The notes under the pieces: model-generated
Databases searched by the model: none
The model's input: the letters and a program-made list of their open reading frames with translations, nothing else
What the model was told of the DNA's origin: nothing
DNA from: an uncultured Gammaproteobacteria bacterium
GTDB taxonomy: Bacteria > Pseudomonadota > Gammaproteobacteria > Arenicellales > JAANXG01
Length of the DNA: 64,000 nucleotides
Assembly (NCBI GenBank): GCA_945787105.1
Contig: CALZGZ010000105.1
Location: forward strand, 19,730 to 83,729
Reading direction: 5' to 3'
In this document: one piece after another, positions 2,498 through 45,083 of the stretch
Layout: every line of letters starts with the position of its first letter
Position numbering within the stretch: the stretch's first letter is position 1
Made by a program: the position numbers and the translations under genes

Positions 2498-5260
2498 ATG
2501 ACGACACAGACCAGAAAGCAGATCTCCGCATTGACCATGAGTACCTTGGCGTTCACGGTCAACTTCGCCGTGTGGACCATGTTCTCGATCATCGGGATCA
2601 AGATTAAGAGCGAGCTGGGACTCAATAATACGGAGTTCGGACTGCTGGTGGCCACCCCGATCCTCACCGGTTCTCTGGTACGGTTGCCGCTCGGCATCAT
2701 GACGGATCGCTTCGGCGGGCGTATCGTCTTTTTTATCCAGATGTTACTGGTCGCGATCCCCACCTACGGCCTGGTCTACGCCGATCAGTATTGGCAGTAC
2801 CTCATGATCGGGCTTTTCGTGGGTCTGGCTGGTGGGTCGTTTGCCATCGGCATCGCCTATACCGCCGCCTGGTTCAGCAAGGAACGCCAGGGCACGGCGA
2901 TGGGCATCTTCGGCGCCGGAAACGCCGGCGCCGCGGTGACCAACCTGGTTGCGCCCCTGATCCTCGTCGCTTGGGGATGGCGCGCGGTCCCCGTGGTCTA
3001 CTCGATCGCGATGGTGGTGATGGCGGTGGCGTTCTGGTTTTTCACCTACACCGACCCGCAGTTGGAGGAGCGCCGCCGGACCAAGCAAAAGCGTAGCCTC
3101 GCTGATCAGCTCGCGCCCCTGGCTGAGAACCAGGTGTGGCGCTTTGGGCTGGCCTACTATTTCGTCTTCGGCGGTTTCGTGGCACTCGCACTGTGGCTGC
3201 CCAAGTACTATGTGGGTGAGTACGGCCTGGATCTGAAGTCCGCCGCCTTCATCACCATGATCTTTACCCTGCCTTCAGGAGTGATCCGCGCATTGGGCGG
3301 CTGGGTGTCCGACAAATGGGGTGGGGACACCGTAACCTGGTGGGTGTTCTGGGTGAGCATCGTCTGCTTGGTTGTCCTCTCCTACCCACCGACCACCCTA
3401 ACGTTTCACGGTATCTCCGGTGATTTCTCCATCGAGATCGGTCTCGGCGTGGTTTTGTTCACGGTGCTGGTGTTTATCGTCGGCATGGCGCAGGGCATCG
3501 GCAAGGCCAGTGTCTACCGTAGCCTGGCGGATTTTTATCCCACCAACATGGGGTCCGTCGGCGGTCTCGTGGGCGTCATCGGGGGTTTGGGGGGGTTTAC
3601 CATGCCCATCATGTTCGGCGTCGCCGCCGACGCGCTGGACGTGCGCTCCAGCGCCTTCATGCTGATGTCCATCGTGCTCGCCGCAGTGATGATCTGGACC
3701 TGGATGGCGGCCCGTGGGGAACGGGAGGCGATCCTCGAGCGCCAGCCCGCCCTGCGTGAGGAGCTGATCAGGGAGCACCTCCTGGAGGGGCGGCCGACGC
3801 ACGGCCGTTGGTTGTTGGGCTGGCGTCCGGATGATGAGACCCTGTGGGCGCAATCTGGCCGGCGTATCGCGCTGCGCAACCTGTTGTTTTCGATGCCGCC
3901 GCTGTTGCTGTCGTTCGCCGTTTGGATGGTTTGGAGTGTGGTAGTGGTCGAGTTGCCCGAGATCGGCTTCCAATTCACCACCGGCGAGCTGTTTTGGTTG
4001 GCGGCGATCCCGGGTCTCTCGGGCGCGGTCATGCGTCTCGCCTACTCGTTCGTGGTGCCGCTATTCGGGGGCAGGAATTTCACGGTGTTCAGCACCGCAT
4101 CGCTGTTGCTTCCCACCCTGTGGATGGCCTTTGCGGTACAGGACCCCACCACCGATTACGTCGTGTTTGTCGTCATCGCGTTGCTTTGTGGCCTGGGCGG
4201 CGGCAACTTCGCGGCGAGCATGGCCAACATCAGTTTCTTCTTTCCTAAACGCATGCAGGGTACCGCCCTGGGTTGGAACGCCGGCGTCGGTAACCTCGGT
4301 GTGAGCGTCGTGCAGCTGACGGTGCCGCTCGTGATCTACGGTGGCGCGTCGGCCATATTTGGCGGCAGCCCCCAGGCCCAAGTCCAAGATTCGGAGATCG
4401 GGTATTGGAGCGTGCAACGGTTGGTGTGGATGCAGAACGCCGGTTACTTCTGGGTGCCGCTGATCCTGGCCGCGACCCTCGGTGCTTGGTTCGGCATGAA
4501 TAATATCCGCGATGTGCGCGCGTCGTTTAGCGAGCAACTGGTGATCTTCCGGCGCAAGCACGCGTGGTTGCTGTCGTGGCTTTACATGGGCACCTTCGGG
4601 TCGTTCATCGGATTCGCAGCGGCGTTCCCGATACTACTGTCTTCTCAATTTCCGGGCACCGGAGCCGCCCGGTACGCCTTCGTTGGACCGCTGCTGGGTG
4701 CCGTGATACGTCCCCTCGGCGGTTGGCTGGCGGATCGATTCGGCGGGGGAAGGGTCACGTTCTGGAACTTTGCCGTCATGCTGGTGATGGCGGTCAGCAT
4801 TTACGGCTTCCTGCCGTCGGGCGCCGATGTAACCCAGCTCACCGGGTTCTACACGGTTTTCATGCTGCTGTTCGTTGCCACCGGTATCGGAAACGGCTCG
4901 GTATTCCGCATCGTCCCGAACGTTTTCCTGGAATTCCACAAGGCATTGGCCGCTGGCAAGGATGAGGCGGCGCAGGCGCAGGCGGTTCGCGAAGGCGAAA
5001 TCGAGGCGTCGGTTGCCCTCGGGTTCACCGCCGCCATCGCCGCTCTCGGGCTATTCTTGATCCCCGCCATCATCGGTGTGTCGGTGGCGGTTACCGGTAC
5101 GGCCCATGCGGCGATGATGATTTTCGTGCTTTTCTACGCCAGCTGTCTATTGGTGACCTGGACGTATTACGCGCGTGCGGAATCCGGAGATTCACGCCGG
5201 CGCGTACACGAGCCGTTCGCGGCAGACCCGCCGCCCGCCCCATCCGGTTCGACCACGTGA
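2498..5260 (+). CDS. narK: fused double NarK transporter (NarK1-like N half plus NarK2-like C half)
   Basis: 920-aa ORF with a GGGAGG Shine-Dalgarno sequence 5 nt upstream. The N half is a 12-TM MFS with 'GIFGAGNAGAAV'. A soluble linker ('ARGEREAILERQPALREEL...') follows. The C half repeats the NarK2 pattern ('RNLLFSMPPLLLSFAVW', 'GGGNFAASMANISFFFPK', 'NAGVGNLG'). Confidence 0.8.
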   Translation: MTTQTRKQISALTMSTLAFTVNFAVWTMFSIIGIKIKSELGLNNTEFGLLVATPILTGSLVRLPLGIMTDRFGGRIVFFIQMLLVAIPTYGLVYADQYWQYLMIGLFVGLAGGSFAIGIAYTAAWFSKERQGTAMGIFGAGNAGAAVTNLVAPLILVAWGWRAVPVVYSIAMVVMAVAFWFFTYTDPQLEERRRTKQKRSLADQLAPLAENQVWRFGLAYYFVFGGFVALALWLPKYYVGEYGLDLKSAAFITMIFTLPSGVIRALGGWVSDKWGGDTVTWWVFWVSIVCLVVLSYPPTTLTFHGISGDFSIEIGLGVVLFTVLVFIVGMAQGIGKASVYRSLADFYPTNMGSVGGLVGVIGGLGGFTMPIMFGVAADALDVRSSAFMLMSIVLAAVMIWTWMAARGEREAILERQPALREELIREHLLEGRPTHGRWLLGWRPDDETLWAQSGRRIALRNLLFSMPPLLLSFAVWMVWSVVVVELPEIGFQFTTGELFWLAAIPGLSGAVMRLAYSFVVPLFGGRNFTVFSTASLLLPTLWMAFAVQDPTTDYVVFVVIALLCGLGGGNFAASMANISFFFPKRMQGTALGWNAGVGNLGVSVVQLTVPLVIYGGASAIFGGSPQAQVQDSEIGYWSVQRLVWMQNAGYFWVPLILAATLGAWFGMNNIRDVRASFSEQLVIFRRKHAWLLSWLYMGTFGSFIGFAAAFPILLSSQFPGTGAARYAFVGPLLGAVIRPLGGWLADRFGGGRVTFWNFAVMLVMAVSIYGFLPSGADVTQLTGFYTVFMLLFVATGIGNGSVFRIVPNVFLEFHKALAAGKDEAAQAQAVREGEIEASVALGFTAAIAALGLFLIPAIIGVSVAVTGTAHAAMMIFVLFYASCLLVTWTYYARAESGDSRRRVHEPFAADPPPAPSGSTT

Positions 5261-6595: not shown

Positions 6596-7530
6596 ATGCT
6601 TAATTTCGAACAGTTTGTTGGCCTCTCTGTTCGCCACCTTAGTGCAATGTGCGGGCCAGAGCGCGCCGCGCGTCAGTTGAGCCTGTTAGTGGCATTTGTT
6701 TTCCTCGTTTTTGCTGCTTTTGCCGCCACCGCCCAGGAAGGGAGCGGTGTTCGTACGGTAATGCAGAAGCTCGCCGTCCTCAATCAATACTTCGCATCCC
6801 CAACTGCTGAGCGGATCCTCGCGAGCAATGCTGGGGAGTGGCGACGGCCCTCGCTCGCACTCGTGGGCTGATGGTGGATGCCCGCGACTCGCTGGATGCT
6901 GGTGACGTCGATCGGGCCAAAGAACTCGCGGACGCAGCGTTGAAAGAGTTATCGGCGGCATCTCGACTCGCGAACCGGCAGGCTTCACCACCCGCTCTGC
7001 ATCGCGCACGTTTTGAAGAACTTTTCGCGGGGGTGCGCACCTTCCGGCAACCGTTGGAAGCGGCGTTAAAGGCAAGGCCTGCTGCAAAGACGATACTCAT
7101 CGAAGTGGAAAGCCTAGATGCAGAGTTGGCGCAGGCGGCTAAACTCGCCAAGATGGGTCAATACGAAAAAGCCAATGAGGTCCTGGTTGATGTCTACGAA
7201 ACTATTGCCGCCGGCCTCTCGTCGCTGCACGGATCCGAAACGATAATCTATCGGCTCGAGTTCGCGACACCGGCAGCCGAATTCGATTATGAGAAACAGC
7301 GGTATCAGACGCAACAAGCTTTGGCGCAGATGGTTCTGGAGAAAGGCAGTGCTGCCGCCGGTATTCGCAAGCTCGTGGAACGCTACATCAGTAAGGGTCG
7401 GAAAGCACACGAAACGGCCGAGGCACAGGTCGCGGCAAACGATTACGAGACAGCCATTGCCGGCATGGAGCAGGCTAACGAACACCTGACACGCGGGCTG
7501 GCGATGCTCGGTCTGCCGGTGATGCCGTGA
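6596..7530 (+). pseudogene. secreted alpha-helical protein encoded as two overlapping ORFs (6596..6871 and 6838..7530); apparent 1-nt frameshift
   Basis: The upstream ORF carries a Sec-type signal ('MCGPERAARQLSLLVAFVFLVFAAFAATAQEG', from 6647) and stops at 6871. The downstream ORF is open from 6811 in another frame. Adding one G to the G4 run at 6833-6836 fuses them ('...SNAGGVATALAR...'). The function is unknown. Confidence 0.5.
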
Positions 7531-8918: not shown

Positions 8919-9155
8919 GCCTGCATTTCTTACCAGGATCCCGGATGCTGACTCAGGGGTCGCGCAGCCGCGCGCCGCGCCTGGAGTGAGACCCATGCTT
9001 TGGGTCGAATGAAGCTCAAGCGCAGGTGTGGGAGGGCGAGTCAGGCCCGGGATAGCCGCGATTGCAGTAACACCCTGTACAACGTGGCGTTGGCCCGATG
9101 CCTTACACTCTACCGCGGAGTCGGAGTTTGCGCCGCCCTGGTCAGGAATGCGGGC
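8919..9155 (+). repeat. MITE-like element, copy A (degenerate)
   Basis: The left end 'GCCTGCATTTCTTACCAGGATCCCGGA' and right end 'CCTGGTCAGGAATGCGGGC'+TA align with the termini of copies B-D. The interior aligns with the conserved core ('...ACCCATGCTTTGGGTCGAATGAAGC...GGCCCGGGATAGCCGCGATTGC'). Confidence 0.6.
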
Positions 9156-9306
9156 TAGGTGCAGTAGACGATCGGCGGCATCCGGGCGAGATGGATGACC
9201 GTCTCATCGAGGCGGTCCGCGCCGGTCTGCTGCGCGCGGCGTGGCCCAATCACTTCGTTATCATCCGGTATGGTTGGTGCCCTATGCGGGCGGGGAACAC
9301 GTGTAA

Positions 9307-26979: not shown

Positions 26980-28071
26980 TTACTTCAGATAGATGGGTGG
27001 AATCTCGCGCTGCCGTTTGTAATCCTTGATGTAGAAAATAATCGGTACGCGCAGTTCTAGTTCATTGCCGACGATCTCGGGCGGCATCGTAGGAAACGGA
27101 TCCGCCCGCTTCACCATCTGCATGGCCTCTCCATCCAATAACGTATGCCCGGAACTGCGCTCTAACCTGGAGGTTAATACGTTGCCGTCGCGCCCAATGG
27201 TAAAAAGGACGATGACCGTGCCTTGTTGTCCCTCCAACCACGCATCCCGTGGATATCGCATGTTGCGTTGTAACCATCCCTTGAGCACCCCGGCGTACTG
27301 TGCGGTCACTCCGCGCACCAGCCGTTGTTGAACCGGTGAGGTAGGTGTTGGCGCAGCACGCGCGATCACATCCTCCGCAGGTGTCAACGGTTCGGTTTCC
27401 ACAGCGGGTCGTTCGGGAACACTTTTGATCTGTTGAGGAATCGCCGACGTGAGTTCGTCGAATTGGTTCCGCGGTGATGGAACGTACTCTACCGACGCGA
27501 CATCCTTGCCCGTTACTACATTTGGATGAATGGCCTCTAATTGTAATGATGTCACAGCCACTGGTGGCGCTGCGGTTGAAACGTCTCTCACCACTCGCTC
27601 CGCTTCGTAGACAATCTGGTTTTTTTCAGTCTCCGCACCCGTGGCTTGAGGATTTGGGAGCGACGCCTCGGCCTGGATCTCCGGGTTGGTAATAGTATTT
27701 ACCGGGGGTTCTTCCAACACCAACGGTGGCGCACTCAATACGTCCGATGCCTCACTGGTAAGCGCCTTGGTTGGTTCCGGTGGCGAGGCCGGTGGCGCCG
27801 GTTTGGCGGGTCGGATACTTGCGGCATCCAATGCATTACGCGGCTGAGTCAACTGGCTTCTTATATCGCTAACTGATTCGGCAGGCTGCGGCACAGGTGC
27901 GGCATGCTCCCGTTGTTGTCTAAGCTTGTCTTCCAGTGCAATGACGATGCCGGTGCTCACCATAGGTGGATCAACGCGTGCTGTCGGTTGGCTCAACCAG
28001 AGAAGCCCGAAAACATGAGTGGCGGTCGCCACCGATAGCGCCGCCCACCAGTGTGATGCGCGAATAACCAT
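26980..28071 (-). CDS. tonB: energy transducer TonB
   Basis: N-terminal anchor 'MVIRASHWWAALSVATATHVFGLLWL', a Pro-rich spacer, and a C-terminal TonB domain ('YPRDAWLEGQQGTVIVLFTIGRDGNV...LDGEAMQMVKRADPFP'). The start is set at 28071. The ORF track start at 28164 lies inside the inserted repeat. Confidence 0.8.
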   Translation of the reverse strand: MVIRASHWWAALSVATATHVFGLLWLSQPTARVDPPMVSTGIVIALEDKLRQQREHAAPVPQPAESVSDIRSQLTQPRNALDAASIRPAKPAPPASPPEPTKALTSEASDVLSAPPLVLEEPPVNTITNPEIQAEASLPNPQATGAETEKNQIVYEAERVVRDVSTAAPPVAVTSLQLEAIHPNVVTGKDVASVEYVPSPRNQFDELTSAIPQQIKSVPERPAVETEPLTPAEDVIARAAPTPTSPVQQRLVRGVTAQYAGVLKGWLQRNMRYPRDAWLEGQQGTVIVLFTIGRDGNVLTSRLERSSGHTLLDGEAMQMVKRADPFPTMPPEIVGNELELRVPIIFYIKDYKRQREIPPIYLK

Positions 28072-28073
28072 TA

Positions 28074-28390
28074 GCCCATATATTTCACCAAGGATCCCGG
28101 AAGCTGGCGAAGGGACTTGTCCTGCGCGTAGTTCCCCTGCTGTCCCCCTGCTGTGCGGGGACAAGGCGGGGACAAGTGCCGCGCTAGAACGAAATCCATA
28201 GCCGCAGCTATGGGTTGAGTGAATCGCAGGTTCAGGCGTTCGAGATAGAGCCAGGGCCGGGATAGCCCTGCGACTATTCTCCCGGAATAACCTGGAGACT
28301 CGTATGTTGCCATTTCAATTAAGTTACACGGTAAAGTTCTTAGCTTGGCACCATGAATAGTCGCAGCGCGCCTTGGTGCACTATGCGGGT
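28074..28390 (+). repeat. MITE-like element, copy B (317 bp), flanked by TA/TA
   Basis: Terminal inverted repeats: 'GCCCATATATTTCACCAAGG' (28074-28093) and the reverse complement of 28371-28390, 'ACCCGCATAGTGCACCAAGG' (15/20). TA lies at 28072-73 and 28391-92. The core 'GAAATCCATAGCCGCAGCTATGGGTTGAGTGAATCGCAGGTTCAGGCGTTCGAGATAGAGCCAGGGCCGGGATAGCC' is shared with copies C and D. Confidence 0.8.
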
Positions 28391-28800
28391 TACGGTTCGG
28401 GTCTTTCGGTCAACAACAGCAGTCGTTTCACACCGGCGTCCTTCAAGTGTTCCATAAGCCGAATTAGTGTAACAGCATCTAATCCAGCATCGGCTTTTAT
28501 TCTCACCCTCATCGCCGGTTCTTCATCCAGCAATTGTGTCACCGCGCTCAGCAGCAGATCTTGCTCCATTTCGTTATCATCGAGCGCTACGCGACCATCA
28601 TTGGAGATCAGGATCAGAATGTCGCGACGGGTATCGATCTGACCTCCGCTCGCGGAGGCCGGCGGCTGTATGTCCAGCACTTCCGGCGATGTGATTCGTC
28701 CCAACAACATGAAGAAGATAAGTAGCAGAAATACAATATTAACCAGCGGAACAATACTCGGTTCCTTGTAACCTCGGTCGCTAACCCCTCGCAGCTTCAT
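28390..28800 (-). CDS. exbD: biopolymer transport protein ExbD/TolR
   Basis: 136 aa with 'IVPLVNIVFLLLIFFML' as a single TM, followed by a periplasmic domain. Confidence 0.85.
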   Translation of the reverse strand: MKLRGVSDRGYKEPSIVPLVNIVFLLLIFFMLLGRITSPEVLDIQPPASASGGQIDTRRDILILISNDGRVALDDNEMEQDLLLSAVTQLLDEEPAMRVRIKADAGLDAVTLIRLMEHLKDAGVKRLLLLTERPEP

Positions 28801-28809
28801 GCTGTGTGC

Positions 28810-29235
28810 CTATTTACGTACCAAGGAAATGTCTTGCACGCCGGTCGCGTACAGCGCATCGAGCACTACGACAACCCGCTGTAATGCCACGCCTTTGTCT
28901 GGCTGTACCAAGAACTGACGCTCCCCGACGGTTTGGATGAATTGCGCCGCACGTGCCTGCAGCTGGTTCACAGTAATTGGTTCTCCATTAAGGTCCAAAC
29001 TACCGTTACGTTTCACGCGCAGCAAAACCGTTTTCGACGTGCGCGCCGACTCAGCGATCGCGGGCGTCATTAATCCCACGGCGCGCTGATCTGAAAAGCT
29101 TGAGGCGAGCATAAAAAATACAAGCAGGATAAAGACGACGTCGACCAGTGGCGTCAGACTGACAAGCGGTCGGCGATGCCGAATGCTGTTATTCGACGCT
29201 TTGGCGAGTATTTGCGTGTAGGTTTGGGATTCCAT
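28810..29235 (-). CDS. exbD: biopolymer transport protein ExbD/TolR (second paralog)
   Basis: 'LTPLVDVVFILLVFFML' TM plus a periplasmic domain. The start is taken at 'MESQTY' (29235), which overlaps the exbB 3' end by 47 nt. The ORF track start is 29286. Confidence 0.8.
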   Translation of the reverse strand: MESQTYTQILAKASNNSIRHRRPLVSLTPLVDVVFILLVFFMLASSFSDQRAVGLMTPAIAESARTSKTVLLRVKRNGSLDLNGEPITVNQLQARAAQFIQTVGERQFLVQPDKGVALQRVVVVLDALYATGVQDISLVRK

Positions 29236-29881
29236 GGGTCCAGGGTTGCTGCTGTATCGCCACGGTGAACACCTGAGTCGCTGCACTTTCCATGGTGTGA
29301 GCGGTTTTTTGTACGATGCGTTCCAACCAGTTGAGCACTGCTAGCACCGGTATTGCAATCGCAAGCCCGGCGGCGGTGGTCAACAATGCCTCCCATATGC
29401 CGCCCGACAGAATAGAGGCGTTGATGCGATTTCCCGCCTGCTCGAGTTGTTGGAAGGCGTCGATCATGCCGAGAACCGTGCCTAACAGACCCAGCAAGGG
29501 ACTCAAGGCTGCGATAACCTCGAGCCCCCGCAAATACGAACGAAGTTGTTCCAGATGTTCAGTCGCCACGCGATCTACCTCTTCGCGTATTAGGTGTTCA
29601 TCGAGATCTCGTCGTTGCCTTCCCTCGATAGCGACTTCGAGCACTCTGGCCACCGGGCTTCGGCGCCTACTCAATACGTGTATTGCGTCTTGAATTCTTC
29701 CGGAACGATAGTGGTTTAGTACAAGAGGAACAAATCCCTGGTCTCTGACACGAAGAAGCGCGAACTGCAAAAACTTGATCAAGATGATGGCGAGCGCAAT
29801 GGTTGAGAGCACAAACAAAACCACCAAGACTGGGCCGCCCAGTCTAAGTGCTTCGATCGCTTTTGTGAAAAGTTCCTCCAT
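29189..29881 (-). CDS. exbB: MotA/TolQ/ExbB proton channel protein
   Basis: 230 aa with three TM segments and family motif 'LSPLLGLLGTVLGMIDAF'. Confidence 0.85.
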   Translation of the reverse strand: MEELFTKAIEALRLGGPVLVVLFVLSTIALAIILIKFLQFALLRVRDQGFVPLVLNHYRSGRIQDAIHVLSRRRSPVARVLEVAIEGRQRRDLDEHLIREEVDRVATEHLEQLRSYLRGLEVIAALSPLLGLLGTVLGMIDAFQQLEQAGNRINASILSGGIWEALLTTAAGLAIAIPVLAVLNWLERIVQKTAHTMESAATQVFTVAIQQQPWTHGIPNLHANTRQSVE

Positions 29882-40452: not shown

Positions 40453-40872
40453 CGTTGATCGTGTGCTGGTTATGAGTGGATTGGATAGGCTGCCGACCCC
40501 TATTATGCAACGATTCGTCGCGAAGGAAATTGCCGGTCTGGGGTGGCGCTTGGAGTCATCGTGACCGTGTCCGGGTTATTGGAGGTCACTTACCGGCTCA
40601 GGCCCCAAAGGCACTTAATTTAGGTTTCGGGCCAAACTGAACCGCGGAAAAAGTTCCAGGACCCGCCGTAAATACGTCCATGTAGGCTCGACGCCAGCAT
40701 CCCTGCTGGCGACGGTCCCGGAAATTCTCCCTCAATTCAGTCCTCGCAGCTCCTTTTAGGTCGCAACTACTCTGACCCCGTATGTGCTAACGGTGATTGT
40801 AGGCAGTACGGGTAAACTGTCGGCAATCCCCACGTCATGCAAGTAGCCCGCAGTATGCACCAATGTGGGCTA

Positions 40873-41117
40873 GCCTGCATATTGTACCAAGGCGGCGAAA
40901 TAATGGTTTATCAACTTGATTGTATTCAATAATTCGGTCTTAGGCGAATAGTACAGTTTGTGCTTCGGCAATCGCCTATCCTGGCTCTGGCTCGATCTCG
41001 AACGCCTGCACTTGCGCTTCACTCAACCCATAGCTCGCTATGGGTTTCGTTCCAGCGCGGCGTTCAGACGCCCGATCTCTTCGCCAGCTTCCGGGATCCT
41101 TGGTGCAATATGCAGGC
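40873..41117 (-). repeat. MITE-like element, copy C (245 bp), inverted relative to copies A, B and D, flanked by TA/TA
   Basis: Terminal inverted repeats: 'GCCTGCATATTGTACCAAGG' (40873-40892) against the reverse complement of 41098-41117, 'GCCTGCATATTGCACCAAGG' (19/20). TA lies at 40871-72 and 41118-19. The interior reverse-complements to the core shared with copies B and D. Confidence 0.8.
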
Positions 41118-41210
41118 TAGCCATTGGTTTGAATGAAGAGACTCGCGCAATTTTCCGTGTGACGGTTTGTACCCGGGTAGGCGTCTAGTCGCTTTGTTGC
41201 AATATACGGG

Positions 41211-43362: not shown

Positions 43363-43653
43363 ACCCCCATATTGCACCAAGGATCCGGGATGATGGCGAC
43401 GGGATCGGGTGGCTGGTTCCCCTGCTGCGCGGGGACAAGCGCCGGACTGGAGTGAAATGCATAGCCGTAGCTAAGGGTTGAGTGAAGCGCAAGTCCAGGC
43501 GTTCGAGACCGAGCCAGCGCCGGGATAGACCCGCCTCTATTCATGGTCTGCACCGGGGAGACCCGCAACGTCTCGTCTATGATGTGGCGAAATTCGATTC
43601 TCAAAGTTGCTTGGCAAGAATAGAGGCGGGGTGCCTTGGTGCAATATGCGGGT
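43363..43653 (+). repeat. MITE-like element, copy D (291 bp), flanked by TA/TA
   Basis: Terminal inverted repeats: 'ACCCCCATATTGCACCAAGG' (43363-43382) against the reverse complement of 43634-43653, 'ACCCGCATATTGCACCAAGG' (19/20). TA lies at 43361-62 and 43654-55. The core is shared with copies B and C. Confidence 0.85.
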
Positions 43654-45083
43654 TAACCCTTGACGCACACCACTGGGGTAACGCGCGCCACCTTACGCGC
43701 CAATCCGGCGCGGTCGGCGACGTCCACGACTGCGTCTACGTTTTTGTATGCGCCCGGCGCCTCCTCGGCAATGCCTCTCATCGACGGGCTGCGCACGACG
43801 ATGCCACGCGCCGCCAACTCATCCACCACATGGCGTCCACGCCAGGTCTTGGTGGCCCGCCGGCGGCTCATACTGCGTCCGGCGCCATGGCAGGCGGATT
43901 CGAATGACAACGCATCGTTTCCGGAATTGCCGGCGAGGACATGGGACGCGGTGCCCATGGAACCGCCTATTAAAACCGGTTGTCCCACTTCCTGGAACGC
44001 ATCGGGCAACTCCGGATGTCCAGGGCCGAATGCCCGGGTGGCGCCCTTGCGGTGAACATAGAGGCGTCTAATCTCACCGTCAATTTCGTGTTGTTCCAGT
44101 TTGCAGGTGTTGTGCGACACGTCAAACAGCAACTCCAACCGCGCCTGCGGCAGGATCTTCGCAAACACCTGGCGGGTCAGGTGGGTGATGATCTCCCGGT
44201 TGGCCAACGCGCAGTTGATGGCCGCACGCATCGCGCCTAGATAACGCTTGCCTGCCGGTGAGCGAATCGGTGCGCATGCCAGTTCACGGTCCGGCAGATC
44301 GATGCCGTGTTGATGCGCAGCCTGGGCCATGTCCTTGAGGAATTCGGTGCCGATCTGGTGTCCCAGGCCGCGCGAGCCGCAATGTATGGTGACCACGATA
44401 TCACCGGTGTGCAGCCCGAAAACTTCCGCGGTGTGCTGGTCATAAATCTCGGACACTTCCTGAATCTCCAGGTAATGATTGCCGGAACCCAGGGTGCCCA
44501 TTTCGTTTCGTTGTCGTTTTTTAGCGCGCGCCGACACCTCATCGGGCAGCGCATCGCGCATCACTCCGTGCTCCTCGCTGCGCTCCAGGTCTGCCGGGCT
44601 TCCCCAACCTTGCTCTACTGCCCACTTGGCGCCGCCGGTCAACATCTCGTCCATTTGCGCATCATCCAGCCGAATACGGCCGGTGCTGCCGACGCCCACC
44701 GGAATCTCTTCATAAAGCGTGTCGGCGATGATGAATTTTTTTAGCTCGAGGTCGGCAACCTGGAGACCGGTATGCAGGGTGCGAACGCCGCATGAAATGT
44801 CGAACCCGACGCCGCCGGCCGAGACCACGCCTCCCTGATCGGCATCAAAAGCGGCCACGCCGCCGATCGGAAAGCCATATCCCCAGTGTGCGTCGGGCAT
44901 TGCGTAGCTGGCGGTCACGATCCCCGGCAGGGTGGCGACATTGATTGCCTGGTGTAATACCTTGTCATCCATGTCGGCGATCAAATCGCGATTACCATAG
45001 ATGATTACCGGCACGCGCATGCGCCCTCGCGGCGCCAGTTGCCAGGTGTATTCCGAACTCTGCGTCAGGTCGACTACATCCAC
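43653..45083 (-). CDS. rtcB: RNA 3'-phosphate/5'-OH ligase RtcB
   Basis: 'GYGFPIGGVAAFD', 'GSGNHYLEIQ', 'HCGSRGLGHQ', C-terminal '...VVCVKG'. Confidence 0.9.
   Translation of the reverse strand: MDVVDLTQSSEYTWQLAPRGRMRVPVIIYGNRDLIADMDDKVLHQAINVATLPGIVTASYAMPDAHWGYGFPIGGVAAFDADQGGVVSAGGVGFDISCGVRTLHTGLQVADLELKKFIIADTLYEEIPVGVGSTGRIRLDDAQMDEMLTGGAKWAVEQGWGSPADLERSEEHGVMRDALPDEVSARAKKRQRNEMGTLGSGNHYLEIQEVSEIYDQHTAEVFGLHTGDIVVTIHCGSRGLGHQIGTEFLKDMAQAAHQHGIDLPDRELACAPIRSPAGKRYLGAMRAAINCALANREIITHLTRQVFAKILPQARLELLFDVSHNTCKLEQHEIDGEIRRLYVHRKGATRAFGPGHPELPDAFQEVGQPVLIGGSMGTASHVLAGNSGNDALSFESACHGAGRSMSRRRATKTWRGRHVVDELAARGIVVRSPSMRGIAEEAPGAYKNVDAVVDVADRAGLARKVARVTPVVCVKG

Follow-up and report, generated by a model that had tools for sequence, protein, structure and literature searches.

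How is a tonB gene expressed when a small transposon separates it from the exbD gene whose stop codon it formerly overlapped? The question is raised by a 64,000-nucleotide stretch of DNA from an uncultured gammaproteobacterium (contig CALZGZ010000105.1 of assembly GCA_945787105.1), here called the window, which contains an exbB-exbD1-exbD2-tonB cluster; the whole cluster was read on the minus (coding) strand. Between exbD2 and tonB lies a MITE (miniature inverted-repeat transposable element), designated copy B. This non-autonomous element inserted in the TA of the exbD2 stop codon TAA, which overlapped the tonB start codon in the pentanucleotide TAATG. The sole change brought about by the insertion is a spacer of 318 nt; the open reading frames (ORFs) of exbD and tonB are both intact. 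The junction is composed of the following features:

28390..28800, minus strand: exbD2, 136 aa, with its stop codon TAA at 28392-28390
28391..28392: TA target-site duplication (TSD) on the exbD side, seen in the sequence
28074..28390, minus strand: MITE copy B, 317 bp, delimited by the repeat family and by empty alleles
28371..28390, minus strand: exbD-proximal terminal inverted repeat (TIR) ACCCGCATAGTGCACCAAGG, one mismatch to the family consensus RCCYGCATATTGCACCAAGG
28166..28279, minus strand: conserved family core (CTATCCCGG...CCATAGCTGCGGCTATGGATTTCGTTC...), from the repeat search and the copy alignment
28074..28093, minus strand: tonB-proximal TIR CCTTGGTGAAATATATGGGC, three mismatches to the same consensus
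28072..28073: TA TSD on the tonB side, which A28071 completes to a TAA in overlap with the tonB ATG
26980..28071, minus strand: tonB, 363 aa (Pfam TonB_C/TonB_2), its N-terminal membrane anchor intact from the ATG at 28071

On the coding strand, exbD2 ends with ...CCC GAA CCG TA, the element follows with A CCCGCATAGTGCACCAAGG and closes with CCTTGGTGAAATATATGGGC, and a second TA precedes the ATG GTT ATT of tonB. In this direction copy B runs from its R end (the TIR without a following GGATCC) to its L end (the TIR followed by GGATCC). With a purine as its last base, and with TA re-created on either side by the TSD, the element left both the exbD stop (TA plus A) and the tonB start (TA plus ATG) in place. 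These boundaries and both TAs had been proposed in an earlier note on this DNA, as had the supply of the third base of the exbD2 stop by the element terminus (base 28390) and the distance of 318 nt (28072-28389) between that stop and the tonB ATG (28071-28069); the sequence agrees on each point. The note had also taken the element for a copy of a repeat, and two more complete copies with TA on both sides were found within the window. Copy B has the properties of a bacterial MITE: it is shorter than ~500 bp, possesses TIRs (20 nt, 15 of the 20 positions pairing) and a TSD, belongs to a set of dispersed copies, corresponds to an empty orthologous site and has no conserved coding capacity. The original target, now split between window 28385-28400 and 28040-28100, was near-palindromic, AACC-GTAAT-GGTT, with AACCG forming the end of exbD and TGGTT belonging to tonB codons 1-2.

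Contigs coding for the nearest homologues of ExbD2 and TonB were looked up and their junctions compared:

L055 (GCA_947259395.1, ES_Gamma_065): empty, ...CGACCCGAACCG TAATG ATCATTCGC, TAATG being followed by ATCATT
L006 (Logan SRR12825418): empty, ...AGACCCGAACCC TAATG GTTATTCGCGCATCACACTGGTGGGCGGC
L002 and L003: empty, junction TGATG
L007 and L009-L012: empty, junction ATGA
L004: empty, junction ATGGTAA
L053 (GCA_947259875.1, FCS_M_Gamma_074): filled at the identical TA in the identical orientation, by a 315-bp copy (4684-4998)
Logan lineage (L005, L008, L054): filled at the identical TA in the identical orientation, by ~570 bp of degenerate, composite sequence

L055 and L006, the nearest empty relatives, contain the uninterrupted TAATG that the earlier note had expected in genomes lacking the element, preceded by CCCGAACCG in L055 and by CCCGAACCC in L006. 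Their flanks are near-identical to those of the window, and in the gene calls of both, exbD and a 363-aa tonB share one base. Judged from the compared junctions, a stop/start overlap of exbD and tonB is the rule across the clade. The note had set against its own reading the possible finding of relatives with neither the TA nor an overlap. The TA is indeed missing from the TGATG of L002 and L003, but the one-base overlap is kept there, and both loci fall outside the TAA-bearing clade, which holds every filled allele. TGATG is not fatal to an ancestral TAATG junction, which the comparison supports. The start of tonB is likewise given by the relatives: all eight orthologous TonB proteins begin at the same ATG (MVIRxSHWW; e.g. 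MVIRASHWW...), so that initiation is placed at 28071. Despite the filled TA, tonB is intact in L053 and in the Logan lineage. The tonB-side junction of L054 (470-500; Logan SRR34261238) reads ...CAGTC TA GTT TAATG and has five additional bases; the L054 spacer of ~570 nt contains an internal TIR and is either nested or a tandem of a full and a truncated copy.

A neighbour-joining tree of exbD2 and tonB groups the window with L053 (100%) and these two with L055 (91%); branching next are the Logan lineage and then L006, L002, L003 and L004. In this tree the filled alleles do not form a monophyletic group, which means either that the site was hit repeatedly or that a single old insertion disappeared from L055 by precise loss or by replacement through recombination. 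The window copy and the L053 copy match one another better than any other copy in the core (90.4% identity) and at the L terminus (92.9%). Their R modules are 59.6% identical, and that of the window is 82.8% identical to the R modules of the L014 and L043 copies. Overall the two copies are 81% identical (K = 0.22), comparable to the synonymous divergence (dS) of the flanking genes, 0.14-0.28; as the TIRs have decayed in both, neither is a very recent arrival. The ratio of nonsynonymous to synonymous divergence (dN/dS) of tonB between the window and L053 is 0.28 (dS 0.19), as against 0.16-0.24 for other pairs, and exbB, exbD1, exbD2 and a neighbouring methyltransferase gene display a like modest rise at short distances. 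The value of 0.28 indicates that tonB is still under purifying selection, and for this reason tonB must be expressed.

One base within the element deserves separate mention. The TIR consensus carries an outward-facing ATG (GGTGCAATATGCAGGC followed by TA), which at the exbD-tonB site would open an ORF running over the tonB start in another frame. It is gone from the tonB-proximal TIR of copy B, in which GGTGA occupies 28089-28085. In all three filled alleles the third base of this ATG has changed from G to A (ATATGC to ATATA.; L053:4684-4998, L054:1-499, window 28074-28093), a change present in ~7% of the other TIR ends; of 29 other L ends, 26 still have the ATG. The loss may reflect either shared ancestry or convergent selection against interference.

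How tonB is translated can be approached from the empty alleles. In these, binding between the anti-Shine-Dalgarno sequence and the 22 nt that precede tonB is -0.9 kcal/mol or weaker (calculated with the canonical 16S tail), and as no Shine-Dalgarno sequence (SD) is present upstream, tonB would depend on coupling. With an overlapping stop and start and a downstream gene devoid of an SD, the ancestral alleles fit a translational-coupling overlap, in which tonB translation would be coupled to exbD termination. The window no longer has this arrangement, exbD2 and tonB being 318 nt apart. For the expression of tonB after the MITE had entered the stop codon, the best explanation, which we hold tentatively and to which we give a little less than an even chance, is read-through transcription and a coupling mediated by RNA structure, probably with a lower yield of TonB. 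The operon would still be transcribed through the element. In the resulting mRNA the TIRs would pair, and the stem would reach into the flanks, where AACCGU of exbD would pair with AUGGUU of tonB. Minimum-free-energy and centroid folds of both filled alleles contain the paired TIRs together with the flanking AACCGU/AUGGUU (z = -3.4 and -2.3); in L053, where the exbD side reads AACUA, U-G and A-U pairs keep it joined to AUGGUU in the fold. One long stem would then carry both the exbD stop and the tonB start at its base and would sequester the latter. Opening the region from -18 to +12 around the tonB AUG has a predicted cost of 20.8 and 20.1 kcal/mol in the filled alleles, compared with 7.1-11.7 kcal/mol in the empty ones. 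A ribosome that reaches the exbD stop would melt the 5' arm and briefly free the tonB start; when a ribosome footprint is placed on the exbD stop, the calculated opening cost of the filled alleles drops to 10.1 and 14.1 kcal/mol. Translation of tonB would remain dependent on exbD by unmasking rather than by termination and re-initiation. The TIR would also contribute a GGUG motif, and the out-of-frame outward ATG usual in the TIR is gone.

Several points weigh against this model. Every step beyond the intactness of both ORFs is computational. The TIR stem is decayed (~15 of 20 pairs) and bears no sign of selective maintenance. The GGUG motif of the TIR binds the anti-SD with -5.3 to -5.8 kcal/mol in the same calculation, whose canonical 16S tail may not be that of this organism, and it lies ~13 nt from the tonB AUG, too distant for a good SD. 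The core of copy B includes a hairpin (28213-28196), weakly terminator-like in the exbD-to-tonB direction, which between the two genes could lower read-through. Given the 59.6% identity of the R modules, a common origin of the window and L053 copies is unproven, and so is the time for which tonB has survived with the insert. Finally, a mini-ORF that might serve local re-initiation is specific to the window lineage, L053 having ACG at the equivalent position:

28071..28079, minus strand: mini-ORF ATG GGC TAA (ATGGGCTAATG), giving ATG-GGC-TAA-TG with its stop overlapping the tonB ATG; GGTGA lies 5 nt upstream

Two alternatives are compatible with structure-mediated coupling. According to the first, the element acts as a partial barrier to transcription or translation (the hairpin CCAUAGCUGCGGCUAUGG followed by AUUUCGUUCU, with re-initiation lost), coupling is gone, and the lower TonB level is tolerated or mildly advantageous. 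The terminator-like match does lie on the coding strand, at 28213-28196, but the call is marginal, four matches being found where 3.0 are expected, and no terminator is called in L053 or in consensus copies. The predicted strong sequestration of the tonB start, at ~20 kcal/mol, would fit such a polar effect, as would the orientation of the stop-codon-adjacent copies described below, 13 of 17 of which are entered from the upstream gene through the R end, just as copy B is from exbD (p = 0.049). The purifying selection on tonB argues against it, and we regard polar attenuation as rather unlikely.

According to the second alternative, RNase III cuts the TIR duplex, or an RNase E site is exposed, and the exbBD and tonB transcripts are split, the TonB:ExbBD ratio being reset by mRNA decay. 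The TIRs are predicted to pair over ~20-30 positions, but the stem is broken by 4-5 mismatches, and a cleaved tonB transcript would remain without an SD. There are precedents. The TIR duplex of the Correia elements of Neisseria is an RNase III substrate that is cut at the TIRs (PMC10969869), and ERIC elements co-transcribed in Yersinia operons alter mRNA stability in an orientation-dependent and ribosome-dependent manner, with effects of RNase E (De Gregorio et al.; PMC2229807, PMC10969869). ERIC and Correia resemble copy B in being TIR-bearing repeats within polycistronic mRNAs, whose hairpins interact with ribosomes and RNases and shift the expression of flanking genes according to orientation; they differ in that the effects were measured there and are predicted for copy B, to which no sequence similarity was seen and no Rfam match was obtained. 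Processing of the transcript is an unlikely primary explanation.

A bolder interpretation sees in the TIRs an RNA bridge that took over the function of the lost overlap: by pairing, it would keep the exbD stop close to the tonB start, which has no SD, and would open this start solely upon termination of a ribosome on exbD, a long-range coupling made by a transposon. With the TA hit, or the insert retained, in three lineages and the interfering TIR ATG convergently lost, it would imply selection on the TonB:ExbD ratio rather than tolerance. We consider this doubtful. The earlier note had suggested a promoter supplied by the element; that an outward promoter of this kind makes tonB independent of exbB is improbable. 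Promoters are carried by some MITEs, Correia being one (PMC10969869), but scans confined to the sigma-70 consensus, run on the window copy, L053, copies A and C and a consensus copy, gave no site within an element and no sigma-70-like site on the coding strand of the window copy, L053 and consensus copies. Least of all would we expect a longer TonB or a coupling to an ORF of the element, for which the window offers two frames:

28162..28164, minus strand: TTG in frame with tonB, 31 codons upstream, unconserved
28071..28313, minus strand: 80-codon ORF within the element, whose stop is the TAA overlapping the tonB ATG, unconserved in L053

Both frames exist in the window, but L053 offers just one start in frame with tonB, a TTG lying 72 codons upstream, and has its TAA frame shut 3 codons upstream; the Logan allele deviates once more in both respects. 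Residues added at the N-terminus would stand in front of the TonB signal-anchor helix. This explanation is very improbable. The earlier note had placed an in-frame ATG at 28164; the length of 31 codons stands, and the codon reads TTG. The 31-aa extension and the 80-aa ORF were rejected as conserved in neither L053 nor the Logan allele, the 80-aa ORF being judged a product of chance; it has no Pfam match.

To define the family to which copy B belongs, a single genome of each species was scanned for a 22-nt end motif. The 40 exact matches all fall within four related uncultured gammaproteobacterial metagenome-assembled genomes (MAGs), namely FCS_M_Gamma_074, FCS_M_Gamma_075, ES_M_Gamma_066, which has many of them, and ES_Gamma_065. 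From loci L013-L053 and the window 34 complete copies were delimited; they are 101 to 382 bp in length, with a mode at 245 bp. The family TIR was also found on 65 metagenome stretches, 27 of the copies there being complete. The consensus TIR is perfect in many copies. TA flanks both sides of 25 of the 34 MAG copies and of most of the 27 metagenome copies, and C-TA-G is the commonest target (16/34 and 11/27, respectively); the G-TA-A of copy B departs from it. The target of IS630 is 5'-CTAG-3', with duplication of the TA. By a TA TSD and a C-TA-G preference as in IS630, the family is, as far as its sequences tell, an IS630-like MITE from uncultured marine Gammaproteobacteria.

An alignment of 31 copies reveals a modular structure, in which conserved TIRs, a ~95-nt core and a subterminal L segment are separated by interchangeable variable modules. 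Indels among the copies are not multiples of three. A 24-nt module (ACTACGCGCAG.ACAAG) does not single out the copies of the window and L053, since six other copies in the alignment carry it, and was rejected as their marker. A structured RNA in the core is unsupported: the consensus fold is weak (-13.3 kcal/mol) with covariation near zero, the one compensatory pair was discarded as probably a single subfamily event, and a search of 27500-29000 against Rfam gave no match with E <= 1. At ~110 loci, the scope of a search that did not extend to whole MAGs, no transposase was enclosed by TIR pairs spaced like those of an insertion sequence (IS) or located beside unpaired TIRs, and the 65 metagenome loci contain no IS-sized TIR pair. 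A TIR-bounded span of 1.96 kb in L047 was dismissed as the autonomous partner because it holds ordinary genes; the ORFs beside unpaired TIRs are likewise ordinary, e.g. PlsX, FabH, GspL and L3.

The position of copy B at a stop codon is shared by many members of the family. Their terminal base is nearly always a purine, and with a TSD of TA an insertion into any stop codon regenerates TAA or TAG. At 17 of the 34 MAG copies, TA and the terminal purine together end a reading frame of 100 codons or more, and in 14 of these 17 the reconstructed codon was itself TAG or TAA. As background, 88 free non-coding CTAG sites include 17 at stop codons. Of 27 copies on the short metagenome contigs, 6 are placed at a stop codon, for which reason the enrichment is considered moderate and partly an effect of survivorship. 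A strong preference for stop codons is supported only in part by these counts; the many copies on stop codons are partly explained by TA duplication and purine termini, which spare the ORFs. The core hairpin with the T-rich run behind it is terminator-like exclusively in the direction in which a gene reads into the R end. In L034 (1215-1483) a copy sits in the TAA of the upstream gene, within a former 14-nt overlap with a pseudopilin-like gene (originally MKKANAGFTLLE...), and the outward-facing ATG of its TIR is now the in-frame replacement start of the latter (MRANAGFTLLE...); the element seems to have rescued a gene that the insertion split.

Operon-borne MITEs are already known. Chunjie, in the pst operon of Geobacter uraniireducens Rf4 (Chen et al. 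2008, Genetics 179:2291, via PMC10969869 and PMC3184786), is a lineage-restricted, recently recognised MITE between operon genes, with the structure of the operon reportedly undisturbed and a transcript that folds into a very stable TIR stem. Chunjie has 9-bp direct repeats and is A+T-rich, whereas the family of copy B has a TA duplication and a preference for CTAG; copy B lies precisely inside a one-base stop/start overlap, and empty orthologous alleles give the exact junction before insertion. The RUP elements of Streptococcus pneumoniae and other MITEs mobilised by IS630 share the TA duplication, short TIRs, non-coding nature and tens of copies per genome (PMC2229807). They are unrelated in sequence, and a partner with matching TIRs, IS630-Spn1, is known for RUP, whereas the loci examined here yielded no partner transposase. 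With regard to coupling by UAAUG, UGAUG or AUGA, exactly such junctions, with no SD upstream of tonB, occur in the empty alleles; in the window the overlap is destroyed and its two half-sites are 318 nt apart.

Copy B is a clean, fairly ordinary small transposon tolerated within an operon, and the family, though new, is unsurprising. The case is unusual in that the insertion fell precisely within a pentanucleotide shared by stop and start, and in that both empty and filled alleles are available. An element that duplicates TA and ends in a purine can enter a stop codon shared with a start and leave both ORFs unharmed. The locus provides a natural before-and-after experiment on translational coupling, in which a tonB without an SD that overlaps exbD (TAATG) can be compared, among close relatives, with one behind a structured insert of 318 nt, tonB being under purifying selection in both states. 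It is a candidate route, open to test, by which a transposon may rewire the stoichiometry of an operon; were the RNA bridge real, it would be a long-range translational coupling created by a transposon, with selection on the TonB:ExbD ratio.

Over the whole window the 15-nt TIR core is present 11 times, compared with 1.8 expected. Besides remnants there are three complete copies of the family, of which copy B is one; the others and the remnants are:

43363..43653, plus strand: MITE copy C, 291 bp, TA on both sides, in the stop codon of a 476-aa ORF (43653..45083, minus strand)
40873..41117, minus strand: MITE copy A, 245 bp (the modal length), TA on both sides, in a CTAG target
~8925-9293: decayed family copy
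6637-6651: isolated TIR-like match with 2 mismatches
41192-41206: isolated TIR-like match with 3 mismatches

The present stop of the ORF that hosts copy C (window 43363-43655) is a TAA made of the TSD TA and the element's last A; reconstruction gives TAG as the original. Adjoining copy A (window 40844-40872) is a 25-nt piece, GCCCACATTGGTGCATACTGCGGGC (40846-40870), with TA on either side. It looks like two TIR ends fused, and might be a minimal derivative or the remnant of an internal deletion.

The gene names of the cluster are supported by Pfam (MotA_ExbB 2e-30, ExbD 1.1e-21, TonB_C 7.5e-16), and the compared loci of relatives share the order exbB-exbD-exbD-tonB. The two genes upstream of exbD2 are:

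29189..29881, minus strand: exbB, 230 aa, ORF with Pfam MotA_ExbB at 2e-30, the first gene of the cluster
28810..29235, minus strand: exbD1, 141 aa, Pfam ExbD at 5.6e-23, its orthologues also being called at 141 aa

A look-up of the exact exbD2 sequence matched a single assembly, the MAG GCA_945787705.1, whose contig CALZIS010000034.1 (L001) is identical to the window in the sequence sampled. In the public gene calls of this contig, tonB begins at an internal ATG (327 aa) and thereby loses the conserved N-terminal membrane anchor, and exbB is given 126 aa rather than 230; in the element-free relatives tonB is called at 363 aa and exbB at 230 aa.

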